Origin: an uncultured Candidatus Saccharibacteria bacterium
Lineage (GTDB): Bacteria; Patescibacteriota; Minisyncoccia; Phycocordibacterales; PCTT01
DNA length: 64,000 nt
Direction of reading: 5' to 3'
Assembly (NCBI GenBank): GCA_964566505.1
Contig: CAZMIM010000001.1
Location: 132,581 to 196,580, forward strand
Numbering within the stretch: the stretch's first letter is position 1; the number at the start of each line of letters is the position of its first letter. The position numbers and the translations under genes were made by a program. This document shows positions 15,396-35,960 of this stretch, piece after piece. A model generated the notes under the pieces. The model had not been told where the DNA came from, ran no database searches, and saw nothing but the letters and a program-made list of their open reading frames with translations.

Positions 15396-15618
15396 GGAAG
15401 CATTCCATGATCTCCTGAGCCTTCTGATAGCGTGTTTTGGCTTGTACGTGGTTGTGTACGCGATGGGTATGGCTAAAACTCATCCCGTCGTAGCAGCTGG
15501 ACGACTTGTCGGATCATCCTTGAGGTTCGTTCTACGCTGTGTCGGCGGAGCCATGATTGGCCTCGGAGCAGGACTATTCTTTTCCTCCCGTTCTCCGAAA
15601 AGACGGCTGAAGGAATGA
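15394..15618 (+). CDS. Small two-TM membrane protein (74 aa)
   Basis: Hydrophobic segments LLSLLIACFGLYVVVYAMG and GGAMIGLGAGLFF. Its stop overlaps the coupling-protein start. Confidence 0.35.
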   Translation: MEAFHDLLSLLIACFGLYVVVYAMGMAKTHPVVAAGRLVGSSLRFVLRCVGGAMIGLGAGLFFSSRSPKRRLKE

Positions 15619-17717: not shown

Positions 17718-18101
17718 ATGAGCTCGACACTGAAAGACAGAAAACGAAAATATCTTCAGGAGCTTCGTCGCACCTATACCAGAGTGGATTTGATGATTCC
17801 GCCCGAGGAGGCAATCGTGATTCAGTCGGCTGCCCGGAAGCACGGAATCAAAGTTGGAAAGCTTCTTCGTGTGGCAACGCTCGCGTACCTGAATCAAGAA
17901 TTTGTGGTACCGGATCCGGAGGTCGTTCGTGCCTTAGAGCTACAGATCCGAAGAATTGGAACCAACATCAATCAAATTGCTCGTGCTGCGAATCGGAGCC
18001 GCTCGGTTTCAACTCAGAATATCGAAGATGCGTTTCACCTTCTAGCCGAACTGGAGGACGTCATTGATCAAGCATTTAGGCACCCGGATCAAAATCGATG
18101 A
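17718..18101 (+). CDS. mobC: MobC-family mobilization (relaxosome accessory) protein
   Basis: 127 aa. RRTYTRVDLMIPPEEAIVIQSAARKHGIKVGKLLRVATLAYL matches the MobC pattern (RRT..v.vRls.eE...lk..A...g.svs..lR). Confidence 0.55.
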   Translation: MSSTLKDRKRKYLQELRRTYTRVDLMIPPEEAIVIQSAARKHGIKVGKLLRVATLAYLNQEFVVPDPEVVRALELQIRRIGTNINQIARAANRSRSVSTQNIEDAFHLLAELEDVIDQAFRHPDQNR

Positions 18102-18676
18102 TCATCAAGTCGCTTCGTTGGAAATCTGCCGGATTCAACCGCTTAGTTGACTACGTAGCCAAACATGCCGAAAACAAACAAGCGTTCCGTGTATTTCACA
18201 ACATGCTGCCTCACAGCGATTTATGTCGAGTTTCTGACGAACTGCGAACGAACGACGAGTACAGAAATGTGAGGCGGACTCCAACCGTGCTCTATCACGA
18301 AATCCTAGCGTTCCATCATCTCGACGGTGACGACCTCACTTCGCAAGCGCTTCAGGACCTAACAGAGCAGTACCTCCGAATTCGAGCGCCAAATGGCCTC
18401 GGATTCGCAATGCCACATTTTGATTGTGACCATGCACATGTGCACATTGCCTTGTCTGGAGTGGAATTCAGATCAGAGAAGAGCTTGCGAATGGACAATC
18501 GGAGATTCAAAGCCGTTCGAGAACAGATCGAGATGTACCAAATGGATAACTATCCCGAACTAACACATTCTCTCGTTTATGTTGGGAAGGATCGCATACG
18601 CGTCCAAACAAGGCTCAAAGAACTTGAGTCCATTCGATTAATTCGCGCCTTTGAACCAGGACTCGAGAAGAAGTAG
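18098..18676 (+). CDS. Relaxase/mobilization nuclease domain protein (MobA/VirD2-like, short)
   Basis: 192 aa. Starts MIIKSLRWKSAGFNRLVDYVAK..., His-triad motif HFDCDHAHVHIAL (HxDxxHxHxH). Overlaps the mobC stop. Confidence 0.55.
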   Translation: MIIKSLRWKSAGFNRLVDYVAKHAENKQAFRVFHNMLPHSDLCRVSDELRTNDEYRNVRRTPTVLYHEILAFHHLDGDDLTSQALQDLTEQYLRIRAPNGLGFAMPHFDCDHAHVHIALSGVEFRSEKSLRMDNRRFKAVREQIEMYQMDNYPELTHSLVYVGKDRIRVQTRLKELESIRLIRAFEPGLEKK

Positions 18677-18766: not shown

Positions 18767-19252
18767 TTACACGAATCCTCTTTCCGCCAGACTCACATAG
18801 TCATCGTCTCCGAGTATCAAGTGGTCGCGGACAGGTATCGCCAATAGCTTTCCGGCTTTGACGAGCTGCTTCGTGATGTGTATGTCTTCACGGCTTGGCT
18901 CGGGGTTTCCTGACGGATGGTTGTGAGCCGCAATCAGACATGAGGCATTCGCCAGGATTGCTGCTTTGAATACCGCCCTTGGCTCAACAACGCTTTGACT
19001 CAAACCTCCAACCGATACTGAGCACATGCCCGTCAACGTCATCGCTGTGTCCAAGAAGCAGATGATGAACTCTTCACGGTCGTGCAGAATGAAATAGGCT
19101 TTTAGAAGCTTTGCCAGTTTCCCCGGCGTGTTGATCTTTTCCCGCTTGGCGAACGAAAGGGTTCGCTCCCGAATCAAGCGAGATGAATAGATAGGAATGA
19201 TAAGTCCAGGCTTCTCACTCTCAACCTCTTCGTCTAGGGGTTCTTTGTCCAT
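18767..19252 (-). CDS. radC: RadC-like JAB/MPN domain protein
   Basis: HNHPSGNPEPSREDIHITKQL JAB motif. Track ORF runs to 19441, but the likely start is MDKEPLDEEV at 19252; the upstream extension overlaps the neighbouring ATPase 3' end. Confidence 0.6.
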   Translation of the reverse strand: MDKEPLDEEVESEKPGLIIPIYSSRLIRERTLSFAKREKINTPGKLAKLLKAYFILHDREEFIICFLDTAMTLTGMCSVSVGGLSQSVVEPRAVFKAAILANASCLIAAHNHPSGNPEPSREDIHITKQLVKAGKLLAIPVRDHLILGDDDYVSLAERGFV

Positions 19253-19373
19253 CGTATTGACCTCCTGATATGAAATGATCTGTGGGCTAGAGGCACATCG
19301 TGTGGTGCACATCCTCGTCCATCGTATCGGGAAGTCGATGTGGCAAGTAGACGGTTTTTCGGGGTGAACCTGT

Positions 19374-20570
19374 CTACTTGTCAAAGGGGTATCGTCTGGG
19401 GTCAAGTGTATCGGCACTGAATGGCTTGGACACAGCACCATCGATCATCATTCTGAGGTAGATCGAGTGGTTCGGCAGATTTTCGAAGTCTTCGAACGAG
19501 AACTTGGGATAGAACTCCTTCGCCATGATTCTGGAATCAGTCGAACCCAACCTAAATGAGATTATGGTGCCCACGTTTCCAAGAATGGCTTCTCTCATTT
19601 CTCGGTCTCCTTGCCCTGTGTATTGCTGGCAAATCGCCAAACATACCTTGTATTTACGAGCCTCAGAGAACATCTGGTAGAAAACAGGGGATGAGTAAGC
19701 ATGGACCTCATCTAAATAGGCCGAAAAGTCTCTTCGTCGTTCCTCAGGAGTGTCTGCTCGCGCTAGTGTTGCAGTCTCCAAAGATGCCATCAGCAAGCCT
19801 CCGATTAGGTAGGCAGTATCTTCTCCGACTTTTCCTTTCGCCAGGTTGACCAACAGTATTTTTTCACTGTCGATGATGTCTCGAAGGTCGACGCTTTCCC
19901 CTTTGCCCGTCAGGAGGTCAAATGAAACGGGATTGGCAAGAAATGCCCCTGTTCTGTTCAGAATTGGTGCAATGGTTTCGGCTCTGTATCGAAGAGGAAT
20001 TTTCTCATATTCAAGTCGCCAGAATCTTCGCACTTCCTCATGTTTGATGTATGGAATGACCCCGTTACGAAACGATTTGTCCTGAAGCATCCGCGGAATG
20101 TCTCGGAGCGTGGCATTAGGCAAGTACAGCAATGAAATCAGAGTCATCCTTAATTTGTGTTCCATCGCCGGTCCCCACCAGGAGCTCCATAGTTTCTTGA
20201 ATGTGTTTAGGAGGCTTGAGGCAACAAGAACCCTCTTGTCTTCGGGGACATCTCTCAGTGGATTGAATGAAAGCAGCATGGATGCATGCGGCAGATTGAG
20301 ATCCACGAGCCGATGCTGATCTGCAGGTCCAATACGACGCTTCACATTTTCGTAAAGGTCGCCGTGGGGATCAACGAGCATAAATCCGCGCCCACGCCGG
20401 ATGTCTTCCGCTGCGAATATCTCTAGCAGACTGGATTTCCCGGTTCCTGTTTTTCCGAGAATGTAGATGTGTGACCGCCTATCGATACCATTTCGGATGC
20501 CAAACACCGTTTGGCGGCCTCGGTGATTGGTCCGGGCGAAATATGCAATTTGATCCTCGTCATTTCGCAT
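19374..20570 (-). CDS. P-loop NTPase of conjugative/mobile-element type (TraD/TrwB-like or HerA/DUF87-like)
   Basis: 398 aa. Walker A ILGKTGTGKSSLL, Walker B-like SAYLDEVHAY. No TM helices. Confidence 0.5.
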   Translation of the reverse strand: MRNDEDQIAYFARTNHRGRQTVFGIRNGIDRRSHIYILGKTGTGKSSLLEIFAAEDIRRGRGFMLVDPHGDLYENVKRRIGPADQHRLVDLNLPHASMLLSFNPLRDVPEDKRVLVASSLLNTFKKLWSSWWGPAMEHKLRMTLISLLYLPNATLRDIPRMLQDKSFRNGVIPYIKHEEVRRFWRLEYEKIPLRYRAETIAPILNRTGAFLANPVSFDLLTGKGESVDLRDIIDSEKILLVNLAKGKVGEDTAYLIGGLLMASLETATLARADTPEERRRDFSAYLDEVHAYSSPVFYQMFSEARKYKVCLAICQQYTGQGDREMREAILGNVGTIISFRLGSTDSRIMAKEFYPKFSFEDFENLPNHSIYLRMMIDGAVSKPFSADTLDPRRYPFDK

Positions 20571-21032: not shown

Positions 21033-21428
21033 CTATCCCTGCTGCACTTTCTCTTGGGCAAACAAGAACTTGACCATCACATTTGTAAGTTGCCACAAAG
21101 GCCCAAACGAGGAGCCGATAAATATTCTCCAGGCCCATTCGTCGACATCAAGTTCGTAAAGGTTGAAAGCGTCCACGACGAACAGCGTTGCCACTAACCC
21201 AAGCCAGACGCTAATCCAAATAAGTGACATCCAGAGAAAGCAGCCTCGAAATGAGTGTCTCTGGTTACCATCTCGAATCTTTTGCCTACCCAATTCGTCA
21301 CCAAATCGCCGTGTTCTTGCCTCGACATCTTTCCTGTCCTCGTCGGACAAGTGGCTGAGAACCGACAATTCATCGATTGACCCAGAACTGATGAGGTCAT
21401 ATTTGGTGTCTTGCTCAGCCTTTGCCAC
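21033..21428 (-). CDS. Small membrane protein; candidate toxin partner of the upstream Panacea-domain protein
   Basis: 131 aa. Charged N-terminus, two C-terminal TM helices (CFLWMSLIWISVWLGLVATLFVV). Overlaps the upstream gene by 14 nt. Confidence 0.4.
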   Translation of the reverse strand: MAKAEQDTKYDLISSGSIDELSVLSHLSDEDRKDVEARTRRFGDELGRQKIRDGNQRHSFRGCFLWMSLIWISVWLGLVATLFVVDAFNLYELDVDEWAWRIFIGSSFGPLWQLTNVMVKFLFAQEKVQQG

Positions 21429-21921
21429 CGCCTTCGCCCCCTTGTCTTTCTTTCAGGAGCTTCTCGTAGTGCTCCTTAATAAGATCATCGCCAATAGGCT
21501 CGCCGGATGGGGGATTTCCTTCAAACATCACCTTAAAGACTTCATACCAAGGCGTCCCAGGCATATGGGTGATGTCGGAGAGTGTGAATGCGTCCATCTT
21601 CTTGTACGCATTCCATACGGACTTGACGAAAGATCTCGTCGAAGTGTCATCAAGCGGGATCTCATCGTCTCCGATAGGTGCAGTTACAGCGCCTCTTCCG
21701 TATCGCTTGGTGCTTTTGTAGAGGTCACTGAAGACTGGTCCATAAGGCCAAGCCTCCGGAGCCCTGTCGACCAGTCGTCGTCCTCTTAATCCAAGGCTCC
21801 AACCATGGGCCACATAAACGAGCTTGATCAGCTTCATGGGCGACAAAGATTGACCTTCTTCGCTTGCCAGCTTGAGAAACTCGTTTGCTATACTTGCAAC
21901 AGAATAGGGGCGATCCATCAC
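21415..21921 (-). CDS. Panacea-domain (SocA/GepA/DUF4065-like) protein, putative antitoxin
   Basis: 168 aa. MKLIKLVYVAHGWSLGL...EAWPYGPVFSDLY matches the DUF4065 signature (KL.KLlY...G...W..GPV...Y). Confidence 0.55.
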   Translation of the reverse strand: MMDRPYSVASIANEFLKLASEEGQSLSPMKLIKLVYVAHGWSLGLRGRRLVDRAPEAWPYGPVFSDLYKSTKRYGRGAVTAPIGDDEIPLDDTSTRSFVKSVWNAYKKMDAFTLSDITHMPGTPWYEVFKVMFEGNPPSGEPIGDDLIKEHYEKLLKERQGGEGGGKG

Positions 21922-22009: not shown

Positions 22010-22603
22010 ATGGCACTATTGGATGCACATATCCGAGAAGCGATCATGTTAAACTTGCTGAGCGATGAGGATGGGAATTCCGATGTCGTAGTTGAGGAAT
22101 TGGCAGTTTGCAATGGTAGAGCTCGTGTAGATCTTAGCTTGATAAATGGGGCTCTGCACGGATTCGAAATCAAGAGCGAGGCAGACTCTCTCAAGCGCCT
22201 GAAAACTCAGAGTGTCCATTACTCAGCTGTCTTGGACTATGTGAGTTTGGTTGCGGCTCCAAAGCACATCGAAAGCGCGGCAGAGATAGTTCCAGATTGG
22301 TGGGGGATTATAGAGGTTGAGGATGCAAGCTCTGGGGTACAATTCAGAGTAGTTCGAGACGGTGAAATTAATCCAGATCCGCACCTTCCAAGCATAGTTC
22401 AATTGCTGTGGCGATCCGAGATGGAAGAAGTGATTTCCAACTACTTCCCAGAATTGAAGGTTACGAGATGGAATAAGCGAGAGATATCGGAATACCTGGG
22501 ACAAAATCTTTCCCGCCAGATACTTTCTTCGGAGGTGAGGAGATTGATCAAATCGAGAGAAGACTGGAGACTTGATCAACCACTTTCCGGATATGGTGAT
22601 TAG
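22010..22603 (+). CDS. PD-(D/E)xK-like protein resembling the sce7726 family
   Basis: 197 aa. EELAVCNGRARVDLSLINGALHGFEIKSEADSLKRL has an E...D...E-x-K arrangement. Convergent with and overlapping the next gene. Confidence 0.45.
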   Translation: MALLDAHIREAIMLNLLSDEDGNSDVVVEELAVCNGRARVDLSLINGALHGFEIKSEADSLKRLKTQSVHYSAVLDYVSLVAAPKHIESAAEIVPDWWGIIEVEDASSGVQFRVVRDGEINPDPHLPSIVQLLWRSEMEEVISNYFPELKVTRWNKREISEYLGQNLSRQILSSEVRRLIKSREDWRLDQPLSGYGD

Positions 22604-23633
22604 TGCCAATTTCAATCCATGATGTAGCATTCCCGGTGCCAGAATATTCTTCAGCGATATCCTTGATACGCTTGTCGCCCCACGAATAGTCCTCTCCTTC
22701 GTAGTAACCTGAATTAATGATCTCGGATGCGATGTCAATGTATTGCTTGTAGCCTCTCGGCGAGTGCTTGAACGGCTTGCCTCGGTGAATGGCCCAAGTC
22801 TCATTCAATGTATATTTCACCTTCGGTCCCATAACGTTGACCATTGCAGGGAAATTCAAGTCGCGTAAATCTGGTGGGTCAATACCATAATCAGAAAAAG
22901 TGGGTGTCTTTGTCCCAGGCGTTAGTTGAGCCAATAGATCTCGATAGAGGGTCCATCCAGTTCTTGCGATTTCTCCTTCACTCTCGGTTGGTATTCCACT
23001 GCTGGTCAAGTTGAGTGGCATGCCAGTTCCAGAAACCGAGGTACTTCTCCAGTCGCTCGTAGTTGGCAATGATTCGAGAAATGTCTTCGCCCATTTGATA
23101 TAGGTGGCTACCTGGGAGCTTGACACGGACTCAAAGTCGAGTAGTAGGTCTACCTCGGATGCCGAAACATCAAAATTGGTCAGTGTCTGAGCCAAGGTCG
23201 AGACGGTAACAGCTGGATCGTCATCCATCTCGTCAGTCAAGATTCTGATGCAAAGTCCATTGGCACCGGTAGCGAGGCATTCCTTGACTGCACCTTCGTA
23301 CTGACTTGATCGACTGAGCGAAGTTGCAGGTGTGAGAGTTGGGTTGAGAGGGCGAATGTGGTTGTGAAAAGCGAAAAGACAATGTGAATCATCATCACAA
23401 AGTTCGTCCACCATTCTCATGTCGACAATTAGTCGTCTGTCAGTATTTAAGAACCTCTTTATATATCCTGCTTTACTCTCAATAAATGAGTCTACGGAGT
23501 CCTTGTTGCGCTCGTGCGGCTGAATATGTGGTACATCTAATAGTGGCACGATGAGAGAACTCGTAATCGAGTCGAGTTCTCGAATTGCTCGGCATTCTCC
23601 TGTTTTGCCTTTGATAATTGGGAAGTAAATCAC
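22548..23633 (-). CDS. Protein resembling the sce7725 / Beta-protein (PF14350-like) family
   Basis: 361 aa. N-terminus MIYFPIIKGKTGECRAIRELD resembles the Beta-protein family start (YVPILKxKxGEfxAL). This assignment is from memory. Confidence 0.4.
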   Translation of the reverse strand: MIYFPIIKGKTGECRAIRELDSITSSLIVPLLDVPHIQPHERNKDSVDSFIESKAGYIKRFLNTDRRLIVDMRMVDELCDDDSHCLFAFHNHIRPLNPTLTPATSLSRSSQYEGAVKECLATGANGLCIRILTDEMDDDPAVTVSTLAQTLTNFDVSASEVDLLLDFESVSSSQVATYIKWAKTFLESLPTTSDWRSTSVSGTGMPLNLTSSGIPTESEGEIARTGWTLYRDLLAQLTPGTKTPTFSDYGIDPPDLRDLNFPAMVNVMGPKVKYTLNETWAIHRGKPFKHSPRGYKQYIDIASEIINSGYYEGEDYSWGDKRIKDIAEEYSGTGNATSWIEIGTNHHIRKVVDQVSSLLSI

Positions 23634-24019: not shown

Positions 24020-24586
24020 TCAAATTGGAAGTAGAAAGAATGTGTCGAGGACACAGACTGTACGAGAGGTAAAAGCAGGAAAACACCCTGGAGCGCACGT
24101 AGTGAAGATCAATAAGCGCGAGTATGTCAGAGACAACCCCGACAGATCAAAGAAAGACAACGTAAACAGAAATCGGTAATTGATATGTCTGTATTTATTG
24201 TCACATGGGATCTGAATAAAGAAGGATTGAACGGCTCCGTGTAGTACTGAGCGCGCACGACGAACCGATACCCGGTACTCGTCGATTAGGTGCTGAGCCA
24301 ATACTCTGCGACGTGCTGGCCCTATAGTTTTTTTGATAACGTCCTGCAGCATCTGCTTATCCAGGGACAAGTCAGCCACCAGCTTCTTCAATTGGTTGTT
24401 CTCGGCTTCAAGCTGGCGTAGACGGCGAAGCTCAGAGGTCCCAAGACCTCCGTACTTCTTCTTCCAATTGTAAAAGGTAGCCTCGCTGATGCCCATCTTG
24501 CGGCAAACCTCGGCTACCTTGGTCCCGCTCTCTGCTTGGCGCAGGGCGAAGATGATCTGGCTCTCGGTAAACTTCGACTTCTTCAT
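24020..24586 (-). mobile_element. IS3-family transposase OrfA remnant (HTH plus leucine zipper; OrfB truncated after its first residues)
   Basis: MKKSKFTESQIIFALRQAESGTKVAEVCRKMGISEATFYNWKKKYGG...LEAENNQLKKLVADLSLDKQMLQDV, then LIDEYRVSVRRARSVL (OrfB start), then unrelated sequence. No DDE domain follows. Confidence 0.6.
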
Positions 24587-25058
24587 GGCAATCACGTTTT
24601 TGTCTGATTGTACGTAATCGCCCGGAAACTCTACTATTGAATGGACCAGTTTATGGGAAGAGGTCATATGGTACGACGTCCACGGGAGCCCGGTAACCGT
24701 GCGCCATACGGGGCCGATGGTGGTTGCAATCTCGTTGCCATTCGACGGCTTTGTCGAGTGGCGCTGATAGACTATTTCATAATTGCGCAGGACAGATAGT
24801 GCTGAACCATAACCTATAGAAGTACGAGATTCGCCTGACCGAGCACCTGTGGTGGGACACCTGTACTCTTAGATAGTAAAGCCACTTACTGGACCTAAAC
24901 AACAAAGCTTTTAGACCATTTCGCCCAATACACTTAAGATGCCTTACGCCATGACTCCCTTGAAGGCCTCTGCCTGCCCTCTTTTCACTATAGTCTAGAA
25001 ATGCATGTCTAGAAAAAACCTATCGGGTTTCACTCCCGATAGGTTTTAACACCTTGCC

Positions 25059-25352
25059 TCAACCTGCGTGAGACAAGACATCGATTACTTGATAGTAGGC
25101 CCCTTCTTTCTTGAGCAGCCCATATATCTCTAATTCTCTAAGAAGGTCACGCAGAGACAATGTTCTGTCAACTTCATGAAAACCATTGGGAAGTCTCCTC
25201 AGAAATACCTCCTCAAGCTCAGATGCCGTAAACGGTGTATCTAGTGAGTAAATGGTGTCAAACAGAATCTGACGATTCTGCTCATACTTGTCTATAGCGG
25301 TCATGTGATTACCTCCACAGGTGCAGTCATTTGATTTAGGAATTCGTCCCAA
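25059..25352 (-). CDS. Small hypothetical protein, 3' partner of the HD-domain gene
   Basis: 97 aa. Start overlaps the HD gene stop by about 50 nt. No recognisable motif. Confidence 0.3.
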   Translation of the reverse strand: MGRIPKSNDCTCGGNHMTAIDKYEQNRQILFDTIYSLDTPFTASELEEVFLRRLPNGFHEVDRTLSLRDLLRELEIYGLLKKEGAYYQVIDVLSHAG

Positions 25353-27295
25353 AGCAATTCGCCCAAACGCCTTCGCATTTCTGGCAATGCCTTATCCATA
25401 TCAATGCCGAAAACAAAAACATAAAATGGTGGAATAAAAAGGGATCTTTCTTTTAATCTCTTCGCCACATCCGACACATCTGAGATTGGCACAGTCGATG
25501 CCGAATCACCACCTTCTTCTTTCTCCCCATCGCTCTGATTAATTGCGAGAGGATCTGAAGGACTCACTCCAGGTTTTACCTTTATGGGAGCATAGAAAGC
25601 GTCCTCGATTTTATACTCAGCCACGAGACGTTTAATGGCCTTGTCCAGTGAAGTGTACAGCCACGACTCTTTTCTCTTACCCAAATAGAAGAACGTCTGC
25701 TCAAGATGTGACAGCAACAATCCTCCTCCATTGTAACCTTCTTCCCGAGATTTAATCAACTTCACAATCTCCAATAGATGTGGTTGAACTCTGGCTTTAA
25801 GATCCTCCATTCCTGAAGAAATGATGTCACCGAGCGATGCCCAATTAGTACCGCTAGATGCCTCCTGAAACGCTTTATCCACCTCCCAAAAATCGTCTAA
25901 CCTCTTGTAAAGGGTTACGTATCCTTTTCGCCCCGAAAGCAACTCATCAAGCATCTTTTTGACAGCTTGAGACGTTTGGGGGGAATGATTATAGTGACGC
26001 AAAACAGTAATCAACCACGAATCATCCCACTGAGACACTCTAGTTGCAAAGTCGGCGGGCGTATCTGCCATTCCGCCCTCAAAGGCTATCCACAGGCCCG
26101 AAATATCAATAGGTAGTTGGGTGCCCCTAAATGCCTTTCTCTTTTGCTGACCGGCTTCAGATCTATTTTCGAGTTGGTCCTGGGCCAAATGTCTAATCGC
26201 ACGCCTCATGAGGCCGTCAGTCTTTTTAACCCTATGATGAGATACAGCATACCTATAAAACTCAAAACGCCGCTCCAACACCTCCTCCACTGTACTAATA
26301 GACCTTGCAGATGGGAGAAACAAGAATGGTGAAACGCCTTTATTATCGTCATCAAAGCTAGGGTTCTTAACTAGCTGAAATGAGCTTAACAACCTCTCTA
26401 TTCCTACGGGCTGCCTCCCCAAGGCCGTCATGACTCTATCCCTAGACACAAAGTCCAGCCTATCGACGTCAATTACGCCGTCTATCATTGACTTCAGACT
26501 GCTTTCTCTACCGATCCCATTCTTTCTCAATGCCCTCAACGCCAACTGGCCAACTATAAATTCGTTATATCTTGACTGCCTCGATGTCAGTCTTTTGGTT
26601 GCTTGAGTAATTATCTCTCGCGATAAACGCTCACTAACTCCTTCATGAAAAGACGGAGGGTTAAACGGAGATAGCAGGTCAACAAAATTTTTCTTCGCTG
26701 ATTCGTCTTCTAGGTCCTCTTTGATGTACTCGTTGTAAATGTCAGTAAGTGCAAATTCCGCGACATGAGAGAAAGGTGGATGACCAACATCATGAAGCAA
26801 TGCCGCTATTCTGGCAGCTTGATAGCTGGCCAATAACAGATTGGCCCGTTCGCCATGTCGGGTGTTCTCTAGGTTTGTTAGAACTCCCTGATAGAATGGG
26901 TGATCAAAAATAAGATCACCGTTATCCTTAAAATCTACTTGCTGTCCCCCTCTGCCATCTAAATCACTAAAAGTATGCGCGTAGTGCGAACCAAAAGTTT
27001 GCTCGTCTTGCTCTATTTCCGATATTTCCTCACCAATTGAATCTAGAAATTCAGAAACCGTCTTCTGAGAGGCATTTTTAATCCCCGAAAGAAACACTTT
27101 TCCGGCGATGTGCATGCATCCGATTGAATGGCTAAATCTTGAGTGCCGAGCTGACGGGAATGTTAAGTAGAGAGTAGAGGTTTGCAGCACATTGTGAAGC
27201 CGATTGAAAATTGTGGTCGACAATACTGCTTTTTCAAAAGGACTTACAGGAATAGACTCATGTATGCTATCCGCTATATTCGTAATCTTGAGCAT
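25301..27295 (-). CDS. HD-domain phosphohydrolase, dGTPase (Dgt/SAMHD1-like dNTP triphosphohydrolase) family
   Basis: 664 aa. FSHSIGCMHIAGKV (first His) and LLHDVGHPPFSH (HD...H) match the dNTPase HD signature. Confidence 0.6.
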   Translation of the reverse strand: MLKITNIADSIHESIPVSPFEKAVLSTTIFNRLHNVLQTSTLYLTFPSARHSRFSHSIGCMHIAGKVFLSGIKNASQKTVSEFLDSIGEEISEIEQDEQTFGSHYAHTFSDLDGRGGQQVDFKDNGDLIFDHPFYQGVLTNLENTRHGERANLLLASYQAARIAALLHDVGHPPFSHVAEFALTDIYNEYIKEDLEDESAKKNFVDLLSPFNPPSFHEGVSERLSREIITQATKRLTSRQSRYNEFIVGQLALRALRKNGIGRESSLKSMIDGVIDVDRLDFVSRDRVMTALGRQPVGIERLLSSFQLVKNPSFDDDNKGVSPFLFLPSARSISTVEEVLERRFEFYRYAVSHHRVKKTDGLMRRAIRHLAQDQLENRSEAGQQKRKAFRGTQLPIDISGLWIAFEGGMADTPADFATRVSQWDDSWLITVLRHYNHSPQTSQAVKKMLDELLSGRKGYVTLYKRLDDFWEVDKAFQEASSGTNWASLGDIISSGMEDLKARVQPHLLEIVKLIKSREEGYNGGGLLLSHLEQTFFYLGKRKESWLYTSLDKAIKRLVAEYKIEDAFYAPIKVKPGVSPSDPLAINQSDGEKEEGGDSASTVPISDVSDVAKRLKERSLFIPPFYVFVFGIDMDKALPEMRRRLGELLWDEFLNQMTAPVEVIT

Positions 27296-27322
27296 GGCTT
27301 GAAGGCCCAGAAAGCAACCTGT

Positions 27323-27685
27323 TTATTTGGTGGACTCCTTCTCTTTGTCTTCTCGGTAAGAGATCAGTGCCCTCTTTGCCTTCTCCATGTATTCCTGAGG
27401 AAAAACCGTAACCTTTTGAGTACCTCTGTATTTCACAGGCGGCTGAGGAATAACCTTTTTATCAATCCAATCATAAATGGTCTTTTTCTGCACTCCAAAT
27501 GTTTCGGCGGCGTCAGAAACTGTGGGGTATTCAACCCCTTCGATTACCATCATATCCCCATCCCAGTGTTTGTAGTGGTTTACCACCGTTACGTTATTCA
27601 CTTCTGTTACGTGATGAAGGTAACAAGCCTGGCCGTGTTGTACAAGTATACCTCGGTGTTTGAGCGACCGGATTACTCGAAGCAT
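27323..27685 (-). CDS. HTH DNA-binding protein (excisionase/MerR-like HTH)
   Basis: 120 aa. VSDAAETFGVQKKTIYDWIDKKVIP helix-turn-helix. Immediately upstream of the HD gene on the same strand. Confidence 0.4.
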   Translation of the reverse strand: MLRVIRSLKHRGILVQHGQACYLHHVTEVNNVTVVNHYKHWDGDMMVIEGVEYPTVSDAAETFGVQKKTIYDWIDKKVIPQPPVKYRGTQKVTVFPQEYMEKAKRALISYREDKEKESTK

Positions 27686-28078: not shown

Positions 28079-28474
28079 GTGGACCCTAACCTATTTGTTG
28101 CGGACTGGGAGAAGATCTTCGAGGCATTGATGTTCATCATCGTGTCTTCTTTCATTGTCGAACGATTTCTGGCATTGTTGTTCGAAAGCCGATTTTGGAT
28201 TGAAAAGGTTGAATCCAAAGGATCCAGCCTCAAAGAAGTCTTGGCACTGATTGTTAGCGTAACCATCTGTGTTTACTGGAGCTTCGATGCAGTTAGCATG
28301 ATAATCCCATCTCAACCTACGACTACCCTTCTTGGAGAAATAGTCACCGGAGGTGTGATCGCAGGAGGTAGCAAAGCATCCGTGAAGCTCTTCCATGATC
28401 TTCTGAAGATTCAAAGCTCCGCTAGGGCTGCAAAGAAGAAGGGCGACCAACCAACCAACGAAAGTCAGTCATGA
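28079..28474 (+). CDS. Hypothetical membrane protein
   Basis: 131 aa, about three hydrophobic segments. Stop overlaps the nuclease gene start. Confidence 0.35.
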   Translation: MDPNLFVADWEKIFEALMFIIVSSFIVERFLALLFESRFWIEKVESKGSSLKEVLALIVSVTICVYWSFDAVSMIIPSQPTTTLLGEIVTGGVIAGGSKASVKLFHDLLKIQSSARAAKKKGDQPTNESQS

Positions 28475-29547
28475 TTGGATCAAATCCTTTCTCGAATTGC
28501 AGGTTTTGGCTTCTCTTGTTCGTTCTCTTTGGCTCTGCGAGTACCACAGTGAGCTCGGAAATCACCCTGGACTATCTGGAAGTGAGAAGAACCACTTCGA
28601 TTCGTGGAGAACCTGTCGCAGGAGGAATAGAAATTGCCCAGGTGGAGAAAGGGGAATTCTTGATTCTGCTAGACAATGGAGACCAGATGGGTGGTTTCTA
28701 CCACGTTAGAACACGTTCAAACGCTGATGGGTGGATTTACCGGTCTATGGTCAGACGGTACAGAGGCGAAATGCCTTCTCCCAATATCACCGGTGACGAC
28801 GCATTTGACGACCCAACGTATGCACTCCCACAAACCCTCCAGGAGGCAGCAGCCGCCCATTTGAGACACGGCAAACCACAGGGAACTTACGAGCGAGTTA
28901 GAGCGGGATACGCCTATGCTGTTGATCCTCGTCTAAGAATCCCGATTTGGGTGCAGTATGAACTCAAAGCATCAGACCTTGGCCGAGAAACGCAGCGATC
29001 AAATGACTTCAGGCAAGACACCTCTCTTCCAGATATCGCTCGAGCCGCGCTAGAGGATTATGCCGGAAGCGGGTTCGATCGGGGGCACATGGCACCTGCT
29101 GGAGACATGGTCAGAGACAATAATGTCATGTCGGAGAGTTTCTACTTGTCAAACATGGCACCGCAAGTTGGAATAGGTTTCAACAGGCACATATGGCGAG
29201 ACTTTGAATCAAGCGTACGCTCATGGACAGAATTGATCGGAACAGTCACCATCATCACCGGCCCGGTATTTATGGCGTCGAATGGAATGGTTGAGTACGA
29301 AGTCATAGGTGATCGAAATGTCGCAGTGCCAACGCACTTCTTTAAAATTGTCGTCGACTTTAGCGACCCCACCCAACCACAGTCAGTCGCGATTCTGATG
29401 CCCAACGAATCCCTTACTGGTCACACTTACCTGGAATTTGTGACCACAATCGATGTTATCGAAGATCTCACGGGACTTGATTTTTTTAACCGGATTCCGC
29501 TGCCTGTTCAAGAGCAATTTGAAAGCATAGCCAATCCAAGTTTGTAG
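28471..29547 (+). CDS. Secreted DNA/RNA non-specific endonuclease (NucA/EndoG family) with N-terminal SH3-like domain
   Basis: 358 aa. Signal peptide FWLLLFVLFGSAST. Catalytic DRGHMAPAGD and SNMAPQ (metal-binding Asn) as in Serratia nuclease. Confidence 0.65.
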   Translation: MIGSNPFSNCRFWLLLFVLFGSASTTVSSEITLDYLEVRRTTSIRGEPVAGGIEIAQVEKGEFLILLDNGDQMGGFYHVRTRSNADGWIYRSMVRRYRGEMPSPNITGDDAFDDPTYALPQTLQEAAAAHLRHGKPQGTYERVRAGYAYAVDPRLRIPIWVQYELKASDLGRETQRSNDFRQDTSLPDIARAALEDYAGSGFDRGHMAPAGDMVRDNNVMSESFYLSNMAPQVGIGFNRHIWRDFESSVRSWTELIGTVTIITGPVFMASNGMVEYEVIGDRNVAVPTHFFKIVVDFSDPTQPQSVAILMPNESLTGHTYLEFVTTIDVIEDLTGLDFFNRIPLPVQEQFESIANPSL

Positions 29548-29761: not shown

Positions 29762-30391
29762 ATGACTACTGTAGTCCAAGTTCTCCTGAAGCGAGTCAAG
29801 GTCATTGAAAACGGAGAGTTCGAGCCAAACGTTGATGGAGATAACAAGTTGATCGCCACGCTTTTCTACCCAAGAGAGGGTATTCCTGCGTTGACTTCTA
29901 TGCGGTCTCTCGAGCTAGAAGACGAGGTAGCATTCGACTATTCTACAAAGCCAATTTCAGAGAGACTTCTGTTCAAAGAAGTTGTCAGAGGAAGCACCAT
30001 GCTAGAGTTTTCGCTTACTGCAATCGATGCCCCTAGCAAGTTCGAAAAGCTATTCTCCAAGGTAGTTGTTGGGGCGCTGAAGACTGCTGTGGGTGCAATT
30101 CCGGGAGCGGGCAAAGTTCTTACGGCGGCAACTACTATGGCTGTAGACACCTTGTTCGACTCCAATGGAAACGACGAAGAGAAGGTGACAATAATTGGAA
30201 AGGGGGCTTTGCCAATCACGGCCGATACCGATGAAGGGGAGATTGCGTTTCAACTTGCTGTGCCCCGTGAAGTGACCTTAAGCAAAACCATCCTGAATGC
30301 TGATGGCCTGAAAGAAACTCACAACCGCACGCTAGAAGAGGGATTTGTCAACGCAGAGGTTGTCGTAGACTTCTCAAGAATTGCCTTGTAG
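29762..30391 (+). CDS. Hypothetical soluble protein (no recognisable domain)
   Basis: 209 aa. Overlaps the downstream membrane-protein gene by 11 nt. Confidence 0.4.
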   Translation: MTTVVQVLLKRVKVIENGEFEPNVDGDNKLIATLFYPREGIPALTSMRSLELEDEVAFDYSTKPISERLLFKEVVRGSTMLEFSLTAIDAPSKFEKLFSKVVVGALKTAVGAIPGAGKVLTAATTMAVDTLFDSNGNDEEKVTIIGKGALPITADTDEGEIAFQLAVPREVTLSKTILNADGLKETHNRTLEEGFVNAEVVVDFSRIAL

Positions 30392-31289
30392 TCAAGCAGA
30401 AGTGGTGATGCCGAAATCCTATCTAACCACACTTGTCCCAGCGTTGATCGGAATAGCGGCAGGGAGTGTTATCGTTGGATCGCTTCCTGAAGGTGGTTCC
30501 CTGACGTATGACTTTTCGGAGTTTAGTCTTTGGCGAGTGATGGTGATTTCCCAAACTGCCATCTACAGCGTATTAATCGTATACCTAGCGGCAAGGATAC
30601 GCGCGTCCCAAAAGAAAAAGAATCGTCGCATCAAAACGTCATCCATTCTGGCAGGGCTGGTGTTCCTTGTCCTTGTAGCCGTACCCCACGTGCTTGTCGA
30701 GTTACAAGACTCGCGTTCAGATGACGAGGCATTGACTCAGAGCAATACGGTACTGGCCTATCCTCCCTCTTACCTACAAGACTCTGAAAACATTGTCTCG
30801 ACCGAAGATGTCCTTGCCAAGAGAATGTTTGTAGTCGTAATAATCGGAGCGGCTTTTGCCTATCTGATCGTTGTACTCGTTTCAGAGTTATACGAAGACC
30901 TCATGTCGGTATCAAAGAGGGAAATCCTCGCCCGAATTTGTAACGACAGTCGTGACCTGATCCTGCTTGCAAGTATCGTCGTAACTCTTTCTGTGATTGG
31001 GGCGGGGATTTATCAATCCTCTCTGGAGACCCTCGGATCGACCAAGTATGTCGGTACAGACGTGGTCTCGTATGGCCTCTATAACTCTCTACTTCTCGCG
31101 CTAATCTTCTCGCCACTTTTGGCTGCAGAGCAGCGTGCTGTTCAACGCATAAAGGATCACTTACCAGCCCAACAACCTGTAGACCAGCCGGGGGAGAAAG
31201 GCACGCATTCGCTGGCTTACGTCAAGTCAGGCCTCGGCATTCTATCTCCTTTGGTGGGAGCTCTTCTGACACAAATTGTACCCTGGTAG
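30381..31289 (+). CDS. Hypothetical polytopic membrane protein
   Basis: 302 aa, about six TM helices. Likely start at the MPKSYL ATG 9 codons in. Confidence 0.45.
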   Translation: MPCSQAEVVMPKSYLTTLVPALIGIAAGSVIVGSLPEGGSLTYDFSEFSLWRVMVISQTAIYSVLIVYLAARIRASQKKKNRRIKTSSILAGLVFLVLVAVPHVLVELQDSRSDDEALTQSNTVLAYPPSYLQDSENIVSTEDVLAKRMFVVVIIGAAFAYLIVVLVSELYEDLMSVSKREILARICNDSRDLILLASIVVTLSVIGAGIYQSSLETLGSTKYVGTDVVSYGLYNSLLLALIFSPLLAAEQRAVQRIKDHLPAQQPVDQPGEKGTHSLAYVKSGLGILSPLVGALLTQIVPW

Positions 31290-31455: not shown

Positions 31456-32859
31456 CTACCACTTGTTGCGAATGTAGCGCATCAAATTGAAGAGGTGAGT
31501 ATAATTTTGCTCGCCTGGCTTGTGCTTCAGAGAAGCCCCAGAGTTGTGAGAGGCCTCCTCATTTACAATCTGAGCGATGATTCTACTCGATTCATGGTCG
31601 GGTAGCATCTGATAAACAGACGGAATGAGGAAATCATGCCGAAAGGGCTGAATACGCTTGTTCTTTGGCTTGCTCTTCAGAACTTTCGCTCCATGGATAT
31701 ATCTGCTTCTTAGCTCCTTTGGCCAAAAATCAGGATCCTCATCATCGTAGTCATCGTCTAGGATCGCTTTCTGGGAATAAATATTCCGCGCCGTTTTGAG
31801 GTTGTTTCCAATCTTGTGTCCAAAAAGCTTGCCAGCCTTTACGCGAGAGTAGGCGATCTTCTTGATGGGAGATCCTATGAGTGATCCAAGAATCTCGTCG
31901 ACACTGTCATTGGCTGAAATGATGTTTGCCAGCCAAACACCCTGTGAGGACAAACTGTACTCAGGGGAATTGATCAAGGACAATACAGAGAAACGATTGT
32001 CTGGTAAGTAGTTGGTTGTGCTTAGGTCTTTAAATGCACTCTTGGGGTCACCGTACAATCCGCTAAACCACTTTATGGCAGTGCCCAAGAATTCTGCCCA
32101 CTCCGTGTTGCCGGTGCTTCTCGCGTCTTCATATCCCGCCGTAACGAGCTTATACAATTGCTCAAAATTTATGGCATCGGGCAATGCTGCAGCTAGAGAG
32201 GGAAACACATTTGTGTTGACGGACAAGAGAGAAACGACGAACTCGAGAAGCGTACCGGTTACGTGCTCCTGATTCATGGGATTGGCAAACGGAGCTCCTT
32301 GGTTTGGGCTGTTGATAGTAATGACTGCCGACACCTTGTTTTCCTTGAACACATACCTATCCAGGAATGCCAAGTATCTCGCAACGGTACCTCCTTGAGA
32401 GTAGCCAACGAGGATATTGAAATCGGCCTCCTCGATTAGATCATAGTACCCGACTCCACGTGGGGTAGCCATGTAGCGGCCGTTCTCGATGTCAAAAATA
32501 TCGTAGTTGTTTGCCTTGTCCCACCACGAATAAAATAGCTCGTCACTTTCGTACAGGTCGTGATAATGAGCTAGAATGCCGTTCAGTATCTCTTTCCCTG
32601 ATTCGTCCAAGCCAGCCGTGTCTTGATATCGGTCCCCAATGCACTTGATCGGAAATGGCACGAAGTACTCAACCTTCGGCATGAGCTGATACTTGCTTTC
32701 TCCATCGGGATTACTCCGCGTACAGAAAGTCGGCCGGAATCGTTTTCTCACCTCTCCATCGCTAAGATGAGTAAACATATTTCTCAGTTCGCCCAGCTTC
32801 CCTGATACGAGATCAACCGAGCGGTTGATGAACCATATTTTGACAGTTTGACGGGCCAT
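31456..32859 (-). CDS. Alpha/beta-hydrolase fold protein (lipase/esterase-like)
   Basis: 467 aa. GxSxG nucleophile elbow GYSQGG. Start overlaps the stop of the upstream hydrolase gene. Confidence 0.5.
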   Translation of the reverse strand: MARQTVKIWFINRSVDLVSGKLGELRNMFTHLSDGEVRKRFRPTFCTRSNPDGESKYQLMPKVEYFVPFPIKCIGDRYQDTAGLDESGKEILNGILAHYHDLYESDELFYSWWDKANNYDIFDIENGRYMATPRGVGYYDLIEEADFNILVGYSQGGTVARYLAFLDRYVFKENKVSAVITINSPNQGAPFANPMNQEHVTGTLLEFVVSLLSVNTNVFPSLAAALPDAINFEQLYKLVTAGYEDARSTGNTEWAEFLGTAIKWFSGLYGDPKSAFKDLSTTNYLPDNRFSVLSLINSPEYSLSSQGVWLANIISANDSVDEILGSLIGSPIKKIAYSRVKAGKLFGHKIGNNLKTARNIYSQKAILDDDYDDEDPDFWPKELRSRYIHGAKVLKSKPKNKRIQPFRHDFLIPSVYQMLPDHESSRIIAQIVNEEASHNSGASLKHKPGEQNYTHLFNLMRYIRNKW

Positions 32860-34352
32860 CAGTAGTCCTTTCGATCTAGGTTCAATCGATCACGGAGAAT
32901 CTGCAAGTGATCTGCCTTCTCGCCTTCTGCAGTATTCACATCCCAGTATTTTGTGTGTTGGAATCCTTTCGGTTTGGCTCCAAGTGATACTTTGATATCA
33001 GCAACGCCTGGTCCGAATAGAGGGCCAACCGGCCCTCCAATTGGGTCCCCCTTATACAGATATCCCTCGGGAAAGTAGAGGTTGGTCCATCTCGTGGAGC
33101 CGAATACTGCAGCATGATGTGCTTTCCAAAAGCTGTCATCGTTGCCTTCGCTTCGCGATCTGTAGGAAAATCGTTCTCTCGAATCGAAGGTCTCCATCTG
33201 CGGCGGATCGGTCGGAAACCAACGCTGGTTAACTTTTTCACTGAAAGCTTCCTGGGACGCTACGACAAGCATATTTGCATGAGCCAGCGGCGAACCCAAG
33301 GTTATGAAGTCAGAAATTTTCCAAGGAGGATCCGACTTGGAAAGTTGCTCACGATACCGATGCTTAGCTGCCAAGTATGCGCTGGAAGCGGCTTGAAGCT
33401 CATCTTTCAGACCTTTCTGTTCAAAGTCGTCAGAGGAAAGCGTCTCCGTCGGTGCTGCCTGGTTTCTCTGCCTCTCCCGAATCCTCTCTAGCCCTTCCGC
33501 TGCTTTCTCTACTTCCCTCAGAACACTCAGCGCCTCTGAACCCTGATTGTCCCTACTCTCAAGATTGGGAAACCTATAATTCGCCCAGAGGGCGCTCAGA
33601 GCATCGTAGGCGACCAAACTACCTAAACTATGGCCCACCAATACCACTCGATCGTAATCACCACTATCATGAACTGACCTAAGCAGATCGATAGCTCGCT
33701 TCCTTATATGATTGCGAATAGAAACATTGCCTGCACTGTTGTGCAAATATCTTGCAGCATCTCCTATGTATTTTACAAAGGCACCCTTCCAGATGAATAG
33801 CATCGCTGCAATAAAGAGGAATATGTTGGGTAGATACTGGACGATAGAACTTCCAAACCCATTGTATCCCTCTAGCCAGTCGAAAAGGCCAAAATCAGGC
33901 AGAAACCAGCTAGCGAGTGAAAGTCCCAGGATGGGCAAAAGTGCGATCACTGCCCACCATATTTTTCGTACCGACCCCGTCAGAGTGGTTGGCGCCCTGC
34001 CAAGTAGTGGAAGCAGCCATCCAATGACATGAGTGAGCGTATTGCCACCCATCATATCTTGCCAGTAGACCTCGTAAAAATCAGTTCTCACAGTTCCACC
34101 TTCACCACCTTTAATCACGGCTGAGTTGGTAGTAATTCGTCTCATTTCGTGAGAGTCATACTTAGTATCTGGCATGATCCAGTACTTTGGCCGCGCCCCC
34201 TCTTGTGCAATTCGAATATTTCCGTTTGTGCTCCATACGGCTTCAACGAATCCCATGATTGACTCCATTGGCTTTTGGTCACCAATGCCATGGATCAATA
34301 CTACCGCTTGCTTTTTTTTCATCGGAACGCCTCCTATCGTTCTTCGAGCCAA
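32859..34352 (-). CDS. Alpha/beta-hydrolase fold protein (lipase-like) with internal TM segments
   Basis: 497 aa. VVLIHGIGDQ (HG oxyanion-hole motif) and VLVGHSLGSLVA (GHSLGS nucleophile elbow). Two hydrophobic helices between them. Confidence 0.5.
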   Translation of the reverse strand: MARRTIGGVPMKKKQAVVLIHGIGDQKPMESIMGFVEAVWSTNGNIRIAQEGARPKYWIMPDTKYDSHEMRRITTNSAVIKGGEGGTVRTDFYEVYWQDMMGGNTLTHVIGWLLPLLGRAPTTLTGSVRKIWWAVIALLPILGLSLASWFLPDFGLFDWLEGYNGFGSSIVQYLPNIFLFIAAMLFIWKGAFVKYIGDAARYLHNSAGNVSIRNHIRKRAIDLLRSVHDSGDYDRVVLVGHSLGSLVAYDALSALWANYRFPNLESRDNQGSEALSVLREVEKAAEGLERIRERQRNQAAPTETLSSDDFEQKGLKDELQAASSAYLAAKHRYREQLSKSDPPWKISDFITLGSPLAHANMLVVASQEAFSEKVNQRWFPTDPPQMETFDSRERFSYRSRSEGNDDSFWKAHHAAVFGSTRWTNLYFPEGYLYKGDPIGGPVGPLFGPGVADIKVSLGAKPKGFQHTKYWDVNTAEGEKADHLQILRDRLNLDRKDY

Positions 34353-34847: not shown

Positions 34848-35960
34848 ATGCGTGTGAGTGCTCGGCGCAGACCCACCCATCTTGAGGCAAGAGTATCGCT
34901 CAACCGCAACCATGAATCTTTTCATTCATACACCATGACCAAAGAAGACGGTATACTTCGTGACGCTTTTAGGATTATTGGTGATACTATAAACATCGCT
35001 GGTTCCGAAGGCGTACTGATTGATCGCGATACGCTAGCAAAATATCTGCTGGGCTCTGAACTTCGAGAGCGCATTCTGGCCAGATCGGAATATAACTTCC
35101 ATGGAAAAGACAGCCCATTCGAAACAGCTGCCAACTATGTGGACTGGTTCAGTTCGTATGTGACACAAAGATCCGAAATAACGAAGAGTTGGAATAGAAG
35201 TATCTACCGGGCACGTGTGATCACTCAATCAGAGGCTACTGGGAAGGAACGCGAAATTTGGGCGTACTCAGTACGTTCGCCGACCACAAGAGGGCGACTG
35301 ATCTTCAGAGTTGGTGAAGGAGGTATAATTCGAGTTGGCCTAATCGGCAAAGACGGTAGATGGACAAATAGTGATGGACTCGAACAACTGCCTTGCGGAC
35401 TTTATACGGTTAATTTTGGACGGTGGGCGGCCACTCTGAAAGAGTTGGAGGATAGGATCAACGACCCGAATTGCTCTGAAGACGATTTGCAATCCTTCTT
35501 TGAAGAGAATCGTGAATTGCTTCAGGATACGAGGTATAAATCCGTAATTCCCGAAGCGGTCATTCATAGAGAGAGCGGGGAGGTTACTGCACCTTGGGAA
35601 GCCGACTTCATCCTCTCTCCTGCTGATCAAGAGGCATTCTGTAAAATCATTGAGTTGAAGCGCCCGCAATTTGGCACCATAAAAAAAGAACGACGAGGCC
35701 ACGCTAAGTTTTATCGTGAATTGCATGAGGCAATTTCACAACTCAGAGACTACCACGAGGCTTTCGATTCGATCAGCACGCGCGAAAAGTTTCAAGATCG
35801 ATATGGTGTAGAGGTTTTTAAGCCAGACCTTCAACTTATTATTGGTCGCCGATGGACATCAAAGGAACACCAAGCCATGCTAGTACTGCAACGAAGGCAG
35901 CATGTTGAAATACGAAGTTGGGACGGAGAGCTGGATCGACTTCGGAGGCTTTTTACCTAG
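34848..35960 (+). CDS. sduA: Shedu-like (DUF4263 nuclease domain) defense protein
   Basis: 370 aa. C-terminal half ...FFEENRELL...EADFILSPADQEAFCKIIELKRPQ...ISQLRDYHEAF...PDLQLIIGR...VEIRSWDGELDRL parallels the DUF4263 core (D...E-x-K, LIIGR block). Confidence 0.5.
   Translation: MRVSARRRPTHLEARVSLNRNHESFHSYTMTKEDGILRDAFRIIGDTINIAGSEGVLIDRDTLAKYLLGSELRERILARSEYNFHGKDSPFETAANYVDWFSSYVTQRSEITKSWNRSIYRARVITQSEATGKEREIWAYSVRSPTTRGRLIFRVGEGGIIRVGLIGKDGRWTNSDGLEQLPCGLYTVNFGRWAATLKELEDRINDPNCSEDDLQSFFEENRELLQDTRYKSVIPEAVIHRESGEVTAPWEADFILSPADQEAFCKIIELKRPQFGTIKKERRGHAKFYRELHEAISQLRDYHEAFDSISTREKFQDRYGVEVFKPDLQLIIGRRWTSKEHQAMLVLQRRQHVEIRSWDGELDRLRRLFT

Follow-up and report, generated by a model that had tools for sequence, protein, structure and literature searches.

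A two-gene operon of a SAMHD1/EF1143-branch HD triphosphohydrolase and a predicted winged-helix partner on a putative mobile island of an uncultured Candidatus Saccharibacteria bacterium, with a possible role in phage defence

Nucleotide depletion is an antiviral strategy in bacteria as well as in animals, and how such toxic enzymes are kept off before infection is an open question. In bacteria, deoxynucleoside triphosphate (dNTP) triphosphohydrolases (dNTPases) take part in phage defence, some of them with accessory regulators, as described for Clover CloA/CloB (PMC12265719) and Vdg (PMC13519002). The known defence examples are Dgt-type enzymes that work alone or, in Clover, under a nucleotide-synthesising partner. 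The anti-phage dGTPase (Tal et al. 2022 type, NF041026) and the octameric dGTPase Vdg (PMC13519002) are nucleotide-depleting members of the HD superfamily found in defence islands; they belong to the Dgt branch, have 430 to 500 amino acids (aa) and act alone. Another branch holds eukaryotic SAMHD1, an antiviral dNTP-depleting enzyme with an extra non-catalytic module, and the bacterial EF1143 (Enterococcus faecalis), BT4208 and Aquifex 2hek-type proteins, which are stand-alone enzymes of 370 to 480 aa. Here we describe a minus-strand operon in a stretch of 64,000 nucleotides (nt) from an uncultured Candidatus Saccharibacteria bacterium (GCA_964566505.1, contig CAZMIM010000001.1, positions 132,581 to 196,580), hereafter the window. 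The operon encodes a 664-aa HD protein of this second branch and, directly downstream, a dedicated 81-aa partner with a predicted winged-helix fold.

With this locus a family of about 400 sequence clusters is defined, rare yet spread over several phyla, which combines a SAMHD1-branch enzyme, a winged-helix partner and an altered allosteric site. We are close to certain of the anatomy of the locus and the class of its enzyme. By analogy with the systems above, the operon may be an as yet undescribed variant of a nucleotide-depletion anti-phage module, a proposal for which we see even chances.

The enzyme and its branch of the HD superfamily

A preliminary description of this locus had presented the HD protein as a Dgt-type enzyme carrying two histidine motifs. 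Both motifs are present (RFSHSIGCMH at residues 53-62 and LLHDVGHPPFSH at residues 166-177), and far from being degenerate they keep their key residues invariant in an alignment of 29 homologues. The Dgt label, on the other hand, had to be abandoned. All curated dGTPase models fail, including the anti-phage one, with 16 to 27 bits against cut-offs of 152 to 511 (TIGR01353, 26.9 against 152; NF041026, 23.2 against 400; NF003701, 22 against 383), and their matches span just 30 to 50 residues around the HD motif, within residues 136 to 207 approximately. The general Pfam HD model is passed marginally (23.6 bits, cut-off 22). The string HDxGHxPFSH is common to the Dgt and SAMHD1/EF1143 branches and is not diagnostic of Dgt; the HD protein shares the core HDxGHxPF[GS]HxxE with the anti-phage dGTPases.

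When the single sequence was compared with PDB, its N-terminal region matched SAMHD1, Aquifex 2hek, BT4208 and EF1143. The profile of 29 homologues recovered 2hek (E 5e-30), BT4208 (6e-26), EF1143 (8e-22) and SAMHD1 (2e-20), whereas E. coli Dgt was reached at just 6.6e-5. The HD protein agrees with the SAMHD1/EF1143 branch at its N-terminal region and in the motifs DxDRxDY..RD and Y..HHRV.K. EF1143, BT4208 and the 2hek-type protein, which lead both the profile and the fold comparison, have in common with it the N-terminal beta-hairpin/FxRL region, the H...HD...D metal site, DxDRxDY..RD and Y..H.K. The AlphaFold2 (AF2) model, built with the family alignment as input, has a predicted local distance difference test score (pLDDT) of 82.3 and a predicted template modelling score of 0.88. 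Its best Foldseek matches in PDB are EF1143 with bound dNTPs and the fungal, worm and human SAMHD1 structures, all with probability 1.0; for EF1143, SAMHD1 and BT4208 the E-values lie between 2.5e-12 and 6e-10, with target template modelling (TM) scores of 0.6 to 0.7. Eukaryotic SAMHD1 is of the same class and fold at an identity of about 12 to 15%. By sequence and model, the protein is predicted to be an HD triphosphohydrolase of the SAMHD1/EF1143 branch and not a Dgt. A Dgt-type dGTPase is ruled out by the failed curated models together with the weak profile score of E. coli Dgt. What stands of the earlier view is that the enzyme is intact and of the dNTP-triphosphohydrolase type, its catalytic residues being conserved and its modelled fold matching. 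Fold class and intact catalytic centre are established in this analysis.

The unusual length noted before is real, and exceeds that of the solved bacterial relatives EF1143, 2hek and BT4208 by about 200 aa, yet it does not take the form of the C-terminal extension that had been proposed. In comparison with 2hek and EF1143, an insertion of about 75 aa lies between the first histidine and the HD motif and a second one precedes the HE motif. The C-terminal half is about 160 aa larger and carries the family-specific motif ISGLW...QWDDxWL; the final 180 residues of the protein are weakly conserved. The extra length therefore consists of insertions and an enlarged C-terminal half and not of an appended domain.

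The metal ligands H56, H168/D169 and D278, which align with SAMHD1 H167, H206, D207 and D311, are invariant in the 29 homologues. The catalytic H172, the H177-x-x-E180 dyad and H217/E218 are invariant or nearly so, as are the basic residues R53, R279 and R343 and the motif Y347...H353-H354-R-V-x-K358. From the profile alignments, we take the catalytic and basic residues to correspond to SAMHD1 H210, H215, H233, R164, K312 and R366.

Outside this set the alignment shows two groups of replacements, both of which weigh against the nucleotide-depletion reading. The guanine allosteric triad of SAMHD1 (D137/Q142/R145) is replaced by S26/N31/H34, with N31 and H34 invariant or nearly so within the long-HD family; this guanine site 1 is retained by 2hek and, in part, by EF1143. 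In the copy of the window, T39, S352 and F282 align with the sugar-discriminating L150, Y374 and Y315 of SAMHD1. L150 and Y374 serve SAMHD1 to reject the ribose 2'-OH, and with the three replacements specificity for dNTPs is not assured.

A related observation concerns the alphaproteobacterial outgroup clade of the family, in which a short PurA-like gene lies 3 to 21 nt downstream of the HD gene (L072, 11896-12945; L074, 8326-9483; L075, 11814-12872; L077, 6625-7731; L078, 11794-12888). The nearest relative of its product is an archaeal-type adenylosuccinate synthetase (E 4e-49), and it also matches phage PurZ. The pairing recalls the PurZ and DatZ (HD dATPase) pair of phage Z-genomes, here on bacterial chromosomes.

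The enzyme could also have a substrate other than the canonical dNTPs, which the winged-helix protein would deliver or recognise; NTPs, nucleotides that are modified or serve in signalling, and the ends of nucleic acids are examples. Both groups of replacements are in line with this, the outgroup pairing with a PurZ/archaeal-type adenylosuccinate synthetase hints at non-standard purine chemistry, and SAMHD1 itself binds nucleic acids (PMC10711556). However, the family conserves all catalytic residues of a triphosphohydrolase as well as the arginines that bind the triphosphate, most relatives retain tyrosine at the two positions where the window's copy has S352 and F282, and no nuclease or signalling partner is encoded nearby. 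We regard such a substrate as quite improbable and dNTPs as the probable one.

The operon and its small partner

All three minus-strand open reading frames (ORFs) of the preliminary description were found where it had placed them, the smallest as a 97-aa form with a TTG start (25059-25352) said to overlap the HD stop. That form is not on record: public annotation gives an ATG start at 25304 and an 81-aa product. At the junction (GGAGGTAATCACATGACC), the HD stop TGA overlaps this ATG as ATGA, by 4 nt and not by 52 nt; a Shine-Dalgarno sequence, GGAGG, is found 6 nt before the ATG. From the overlap, the Shine-Dalgarno sequence and the annotation we derive the gene limits given in Table 1 and conclude that the small gene, as read from the junction, is translationally coupled to the HD gene. 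Beginning 12 nt past the small-ORF stop, an intrinsic terminator with a 13-bp stem (five G-C pairs), a 7-nt loop and a U-run closes the operon; it folds at -19.2 kcal/mol (z = -4.3 against shuffles). A consensus terminator scan did not pick it up, although direct folding did show the hairpin, probably because A/U pairs prolong the stem into the T-run. A promoter scan gave no more sites than in shuffled sequence and no convincing sigma-70-type promoter. Gene structure and coupling are established here, and so is the conservation of the pair.

The idea that the small ORF is an accessory of the enzyme proved sound, as it is a real and conserved downstream protein. With the small protein of the window as the starting query, we screened 68 full-length loci from species-representative genomes, taking every ORF of 35 aa or more that lies no further than 2.5 kb from the HD gene. 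Homologues occur at 27 of the 68 loci; each directly follows the HD gene in the same orientation, separated from it by -15 to +174 nt, and divergent versions take this place at 5 more loci. A gene for 78 to 96 aa also stands directly downstream of the HD gene in each of the three closest metagenomic relatives. A single-sequence search with the small protein recovered itself only, and a profile of the locus-derived homologues was needed. With a leave-one-out profile of the 26 other partners, the small ORF ranks first among the 728 ORFs of the window (E 1e-7), and a profile search of a large database returned 17 partner proteins, all unnamed, several of them on contigs equal in length to one that bears an HD homologue. 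None of the family models of Pfam, NCBIfam, PADLOC and PHROG matches it.

When the HD proteins are arranged in a neighbour-joining tree, almost all deep branches have the partner, including the clade of the window; it is missing mainly from one shallow Lachnospiraceae clade. This distribution across the deep branches makes the pair look ancestral. In Clostridium sporogenes, the partner is fused to the HD C-terminus in a single 748-aa ORF of the assembly (hhalign probability 95%, E 4e-8), the partner N-terminus lying within about 15 residues of the HD C-terminus. When we looked for HD residues that are conserved with the partner and switched in the partner-less clade, only G65->S was found, which is uninformative.

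The AF2 model of the partner follows an H1-b-H2-H3-b-hairpin topology, with helices at residues 4-20, 27-37 and 51-60, a two-residue strand-like element at 25-26 and strands at 64-67 and 70-73. All leading Foldseek matches are winged-helix proteins (Rok, Fur, cullin WHB, Rpa2-WH, FokI D3, FOXO, Z-alpha), with TM up to 0.70 and probability at least 0.9. Two figures temper this picture, a moderate pLDDT of 73 and Foldseek E-values of about 0.05, and the sequence-profile matches to BlaI, AraR and FokI-D3 are not significant. A winged helix is the predicted fold. The partner of the window is acidic (isoelectric point (pI) 4.85, net charge -5), in a family with a median pI of 5.6 and both acidic and basic members; a protein-binding winged helix fits this better than a classical repressor, and binding to protein is no less likely than binding to DNA. 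Taken together, we lean towards a physical complex of enzyme and partner, somewhat less firmly than towards the dNTP substrate.

Most partners begin with Met-Cys (MCKV, MCRV, MCVV and others), and Cys2 is conserved in more than 90% of the database set; the copy of the window begins with MTAI. Met-Cys partners occur at loci L001, L005-L007, L010, L012, L013, L015, L020, L039, L049, L053, L055-L057, L059, L062, L064 and others.

The third gene of the supposed three-gene operon does not belong to the conserved unit. This upstream ORF, which ends 27 nt before the HD start codon, has a helix-turn-helix (HTH) at residues 55-88 with sub-threshold matches to HTH_17 (25.5 bits, cut-off 27) and TIGR01764 (22.9 against 28.8) and weak ones to PHROG excisionase families (E 3e-4). 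A homologue was found near the HD genes at 0 of the 68 related loci, and none in the plasmid and phage collections. No non-homologous HTH gene recurs upstream at 33 pair loci either; other pairs are preceded by 100 to 280 nt of non-coding DNA or by unrelated genes. For these reasons the HTH gene was rejected as a member of the module, and the conserved unit is two genes, the HD gene and the small ORF. The tight spacing may reflect co-transcription in this genome, as a local arrangement only.

Distribution, neighbourhoods and possible roles

Homologues of the HD protein have 590 to 790 aa, are 26 to 44% identical to it and come from Bacillota, Bacteroidota, Verrucomicrobiota, Chloroflexota, Pseudomonadota and many metagenomes, named only as 'HD domain-containing' or 'hypothetical'. 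An exhaustive search of 1.84 billion representative proteins (E <= 1e-30) gave a family of 396 clusters at 50% identity, with no close relative of the window's own protein. No member was found in the phage sequence collection and one clear member (E 5e-41) among 72,556 plasmids. Among viral structure models, only giant-virus SAMHD1-like proteins have this fold. PADLOC v2, Pfam, NCBIfam and PHROGs hold no model for the long-HD family or for its partner.

At 30 loci, we called genes crudely up to 4 kb from the pair and surveyed the resulting 161. The neighbours are highly variable and no third conserved gene recurs among them. The frequent Pfam families are Schlafen/AlbA_2, ApeA-HEPN, AAA_15, SMC_N, SNF2, HerA, coupling proteins and transposases. 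About 17 to 19 of the 161 are strong PADLOC positives (RmrT/A, DpdE/ZorD-like, SspC, IetA, PD-T4-6, ApeA, pAgo/SIR2, PDC-S58, PDC-S01), and PADLOC model hits number 186 for these 161 neighbours against 48 for 139 neighbours in the partner-less Lachnospiraceae clade. As a rough count, this suggests that the pair-bearing branch is associated with defence.

A defence role, suggested by this context, we judge to be evenly balanced between true and false. The HD enzyme would convert (deoxy)nucleoside triphosphates into nucleoside and triphosphate. The winged-helix protein, synthesised in step with the enzyme, may bind it about one-to-one as a regulatory or sensor subunit, docking near the C-terminal half of the HD protein. 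By sensing or releasing an infection cue, the partner would then control HD activity or assembly, the dNTP pool would be drained and phage DNA replication would stall. The direction of the partner's control, the formation of a physical complex, the substrate and the defence phenotype are what we infer here. The more specific form of this proposal, a new anti-phage system in which a SAMHD1-branch enzyme with a rebuilt guanine allosteric site is gated by a winged-helix subunit sensing a phage protein or nucleic acid, is tentative, and we would sooner doubt it than rely on it.

Several points weigh against a defence module gated by its partner, besides the replaced residues described above. The sole PADLOC match of the HD protein is to the dGTPase model, at E 4e-6 across 33 residues. 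The enrichment of defence genes is crude, as it rests on home-made gene calls and redundant PADLOC model counts, and the partner-less control set likewise holds pAgo, DRT2 and AbiLi. Some close relatives lie beside a nucleoside phosphorylase, a pyruvate dehydrogenase complex or a ribonucleotide reductase, and the Lachnospiraceae clade and some metagenomic relatives have ordinary metabolic neighbourhoods. Throughout the Lachnospiraceae clade the HD gene stands without the partner, and the fusion is one case among about 240 family proteins.

Part of these observations would suit a housekeeping enzyme, that is, a metabolic regulator of the dNTP pool or of nucleoside salvage, as proposed for EF1143 and TT1383-type proteins, with the winged helix as an autoregulating transcription factor. 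The nearest solved relatives are general bacterial dNTPases, genes of core metabolism adjoin some members, the partner-less Lachnospiraceae clade is vertically inherited in conserved housekeeping surroundings, and winged-helix domains usually bind DNA. On the other side, the family is rare and patchy, its neighbourhoods are highly variable, and the copy of the window lies within a mobile island between an insertion sequence (IS) fragment and defence genes. Nor are the partners of the family consistently basic, that of the window being acidic, and translational coupling and the natural fusion favour a subunit over a free repressor. Housekeeping homologues with no island association had been anticipated as the finding that would speak against defence; the island association was found at this locus, whereas the housekeeping picture does hold for part of the family, namely the Lachnospiraceae clade and some metagenomic relatives. 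As an explanation of the pair we consider the housekeeping role unlikely.

Still less weight is given to an addiction module of toxin-antitoxin type, in which the HD protein would starve the cell of nucleotides as a toxin and the acidic partner would be a labile antitoxin, the toxin being freed once the element is lost or host expression is shut off. The layout, two genes in an operon on a mobile island with a tightly coupled partner that is small and acidic, fits this scheme, other toxin-antitoxin-type genes are close by (SocA/Panacea), and uncontrolled dNTPase activity is toxic (PMC12265719). However, the fusion of partner and enzyme in one genome is hard to square with a separately degraded antitoxin, a large clade has the HD gene alone without apparent harm, and the family is nearly absent from the plasmid collection. 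Such a module also overlaps with abortive-infection defence and does not exclude it.

The mobile island on which the pair is found is listed with the operon in Table 1. The GC content is 0.45 to 0.54 between about 8 kb and 36 kb and falls to about 0.40 past that point. This high-GC region is cargo of an integrative mobilisable or conjugative element and rich in defence-type genes, and the HD pair is an autonomous operon carried on it; the island context is established in this analysis. The integrase, coupling protein, relaxase and IS3 fragment are its mobility genes, and SocA/Panacea, the sce7726 and Beta-protein pair, the NS endonuclease and Shedu SduA its genes of defence type. The segment 8253-9739 is probably the integration end of a mobilisable island of about 28 kb; to place the island's boundaries we had only the GC shift, the integrase and the tRNA-like remnant. 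Between the presumed ends, no shared direct repeats of at least 11 nt were found. A terminator-like hairpin can be seen by eye between the tRNA-like match and the integrase.

Table 1. Coordinates of the operon and of other features of the window, counted from its first nucleotide
Feature	Position	Strand	Basis or remark
tRNA-like match, marginal	8253-8318		29.7 bits; not called by ARAGORN
Tyrosine integrase	8471-9739		
VirD4/TraG coupling protein	15615-17612		
Relaxase	18098-18676		
RadC overlapping HerA/DUF87-like ATPase	18767-20570		RadC 18767-19441; HerA/DUF87-like ATPase 19374-20570
SocA/Panacea antitoxin-domain protein	21415-21921		
sce7726-family protein	22010-22603	plus	PADLOC 'cll'
Beta-protein PF14350 / PD-Lambda-2_C-like	22548-23633	minus	
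IS3-family transposase orfA	24020-24667		HTH_Tnp_1
Intrinsic terminator closing the operon	25012-25047	minus	direct RNA folding
Predicted winged-helix partner gene, 81 aa	25059-25304	minus	public annotation start and junction reading
Shine-Dalgarno GGAGGT for the small ORF, within the 3' end of the HD gene	25311-25316	minus	read from GGAGGTAATCACATGA
HD gene, 664 aa, predicted SAMHD1/EF1143-class triphosphohydrolase, long-form family	25301-27295	minus	ORF list, profiles, AF2
HTH ORF, 120 aa, weak excisionase/MerR-type	27323-27685	minus	sub-threshold matches
DNA/RNA non-specific (NS) endonuclease, secreted-type, 358 aa	28471-29547		
Two adjacent proteins, 467 and 497 aa, weak PGAP1-like / DUF7379 alpha/beta-hydrolase	31456-34352		
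Shedu SduA	34848-35960		SduA_C, E 2e-14; right edge of the high-GC island, before the GC drop

By eye, the C-terminal third of the IS3 orfA looks degenerate; the gene, which lies some 350 nt beyond the terminator of the HD operon, is probably what is left of an IS. It suggests that the operon was acquired separately within the island. The sce7726 and Beta-protein genes are convergent and overlapping, probably a separate defence module beside the HD operon. A 131-aa ORF (21033-21428) overlaps the SocA/Panacea gene and may encode its toxin. The NS endonuclease has an N-terminal signal-like segment and a weak SH3 match, and is preceded with a 4-nt overlap by another 131-aa ORF, membrane-like by eye; this pair (28079-29547) is divergent from the HTH and HD genes. 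Family-model scans gave no confident assignment for the 467-aa and 497-aa proteins and for the two ORFs preceding them (29762-31289). In the low-GC part, six tRNA genes lie at 39.4, 41.2 and 48.1-48.6 kb. The core-genome proteins checked there (36000-64000) are all singletons at 90% identity among 15 billion proteins, which indicates that the host belongs to a very poorly sampled lineage.

Comparison with known systems

From the stand-alone EF1143, BT4208 and 2hek-type enzymes, the HD protein differs in its greater size and in having a dedicated winged-helix partner. From the anti-phage dGTPases and Vdg it is separated by branch, matching NF041026-type models over 30 to 50 residues only. Clover (PMC12265719) is a two-gene defence operon whose dNTPase effector is under the control of a co-encoded accessory protein, a layout that the present pair may share. 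Its effector CloA is Dgt-like and its CloB is a nucleotidyltransferase making an inhibitory nucleotide, in contrast to the accessory of the present operon, an 81-aa protein predicted to be a non-enzymatic winged helix. No nucleotidyltransferase was found among the neighbours in the window, nor among the 25 most frequent neighbour Pfam families at related loci, which rules out a Clover-type system. A winged-helix partner of a dNTPase goes unmentioned in PMC12265719, in PMC13519002 and in full-text literature searches.

If the pair is not defensive, it is still an unannotated and conserved enzyme-partner pair that deserves a family definition. If it is defensive, it would offer a simple two-protein system for studying the control of a dNTPase by a protein subunit and the roots of SAMHD1-type immunity. 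In the tentative gated form, protein-subunit control would be a third mode for immune dNTPases, beside nucleotide allostery and Clover signalling. In SAMHD1 the extra module is an N-terminal SAM domain in the same chain, while here it would be a separate winged-helix protein encoded downstream, and the pair would then be a closer bacterial counterpart of eukaryotic SAMHD1 than any studied so far.

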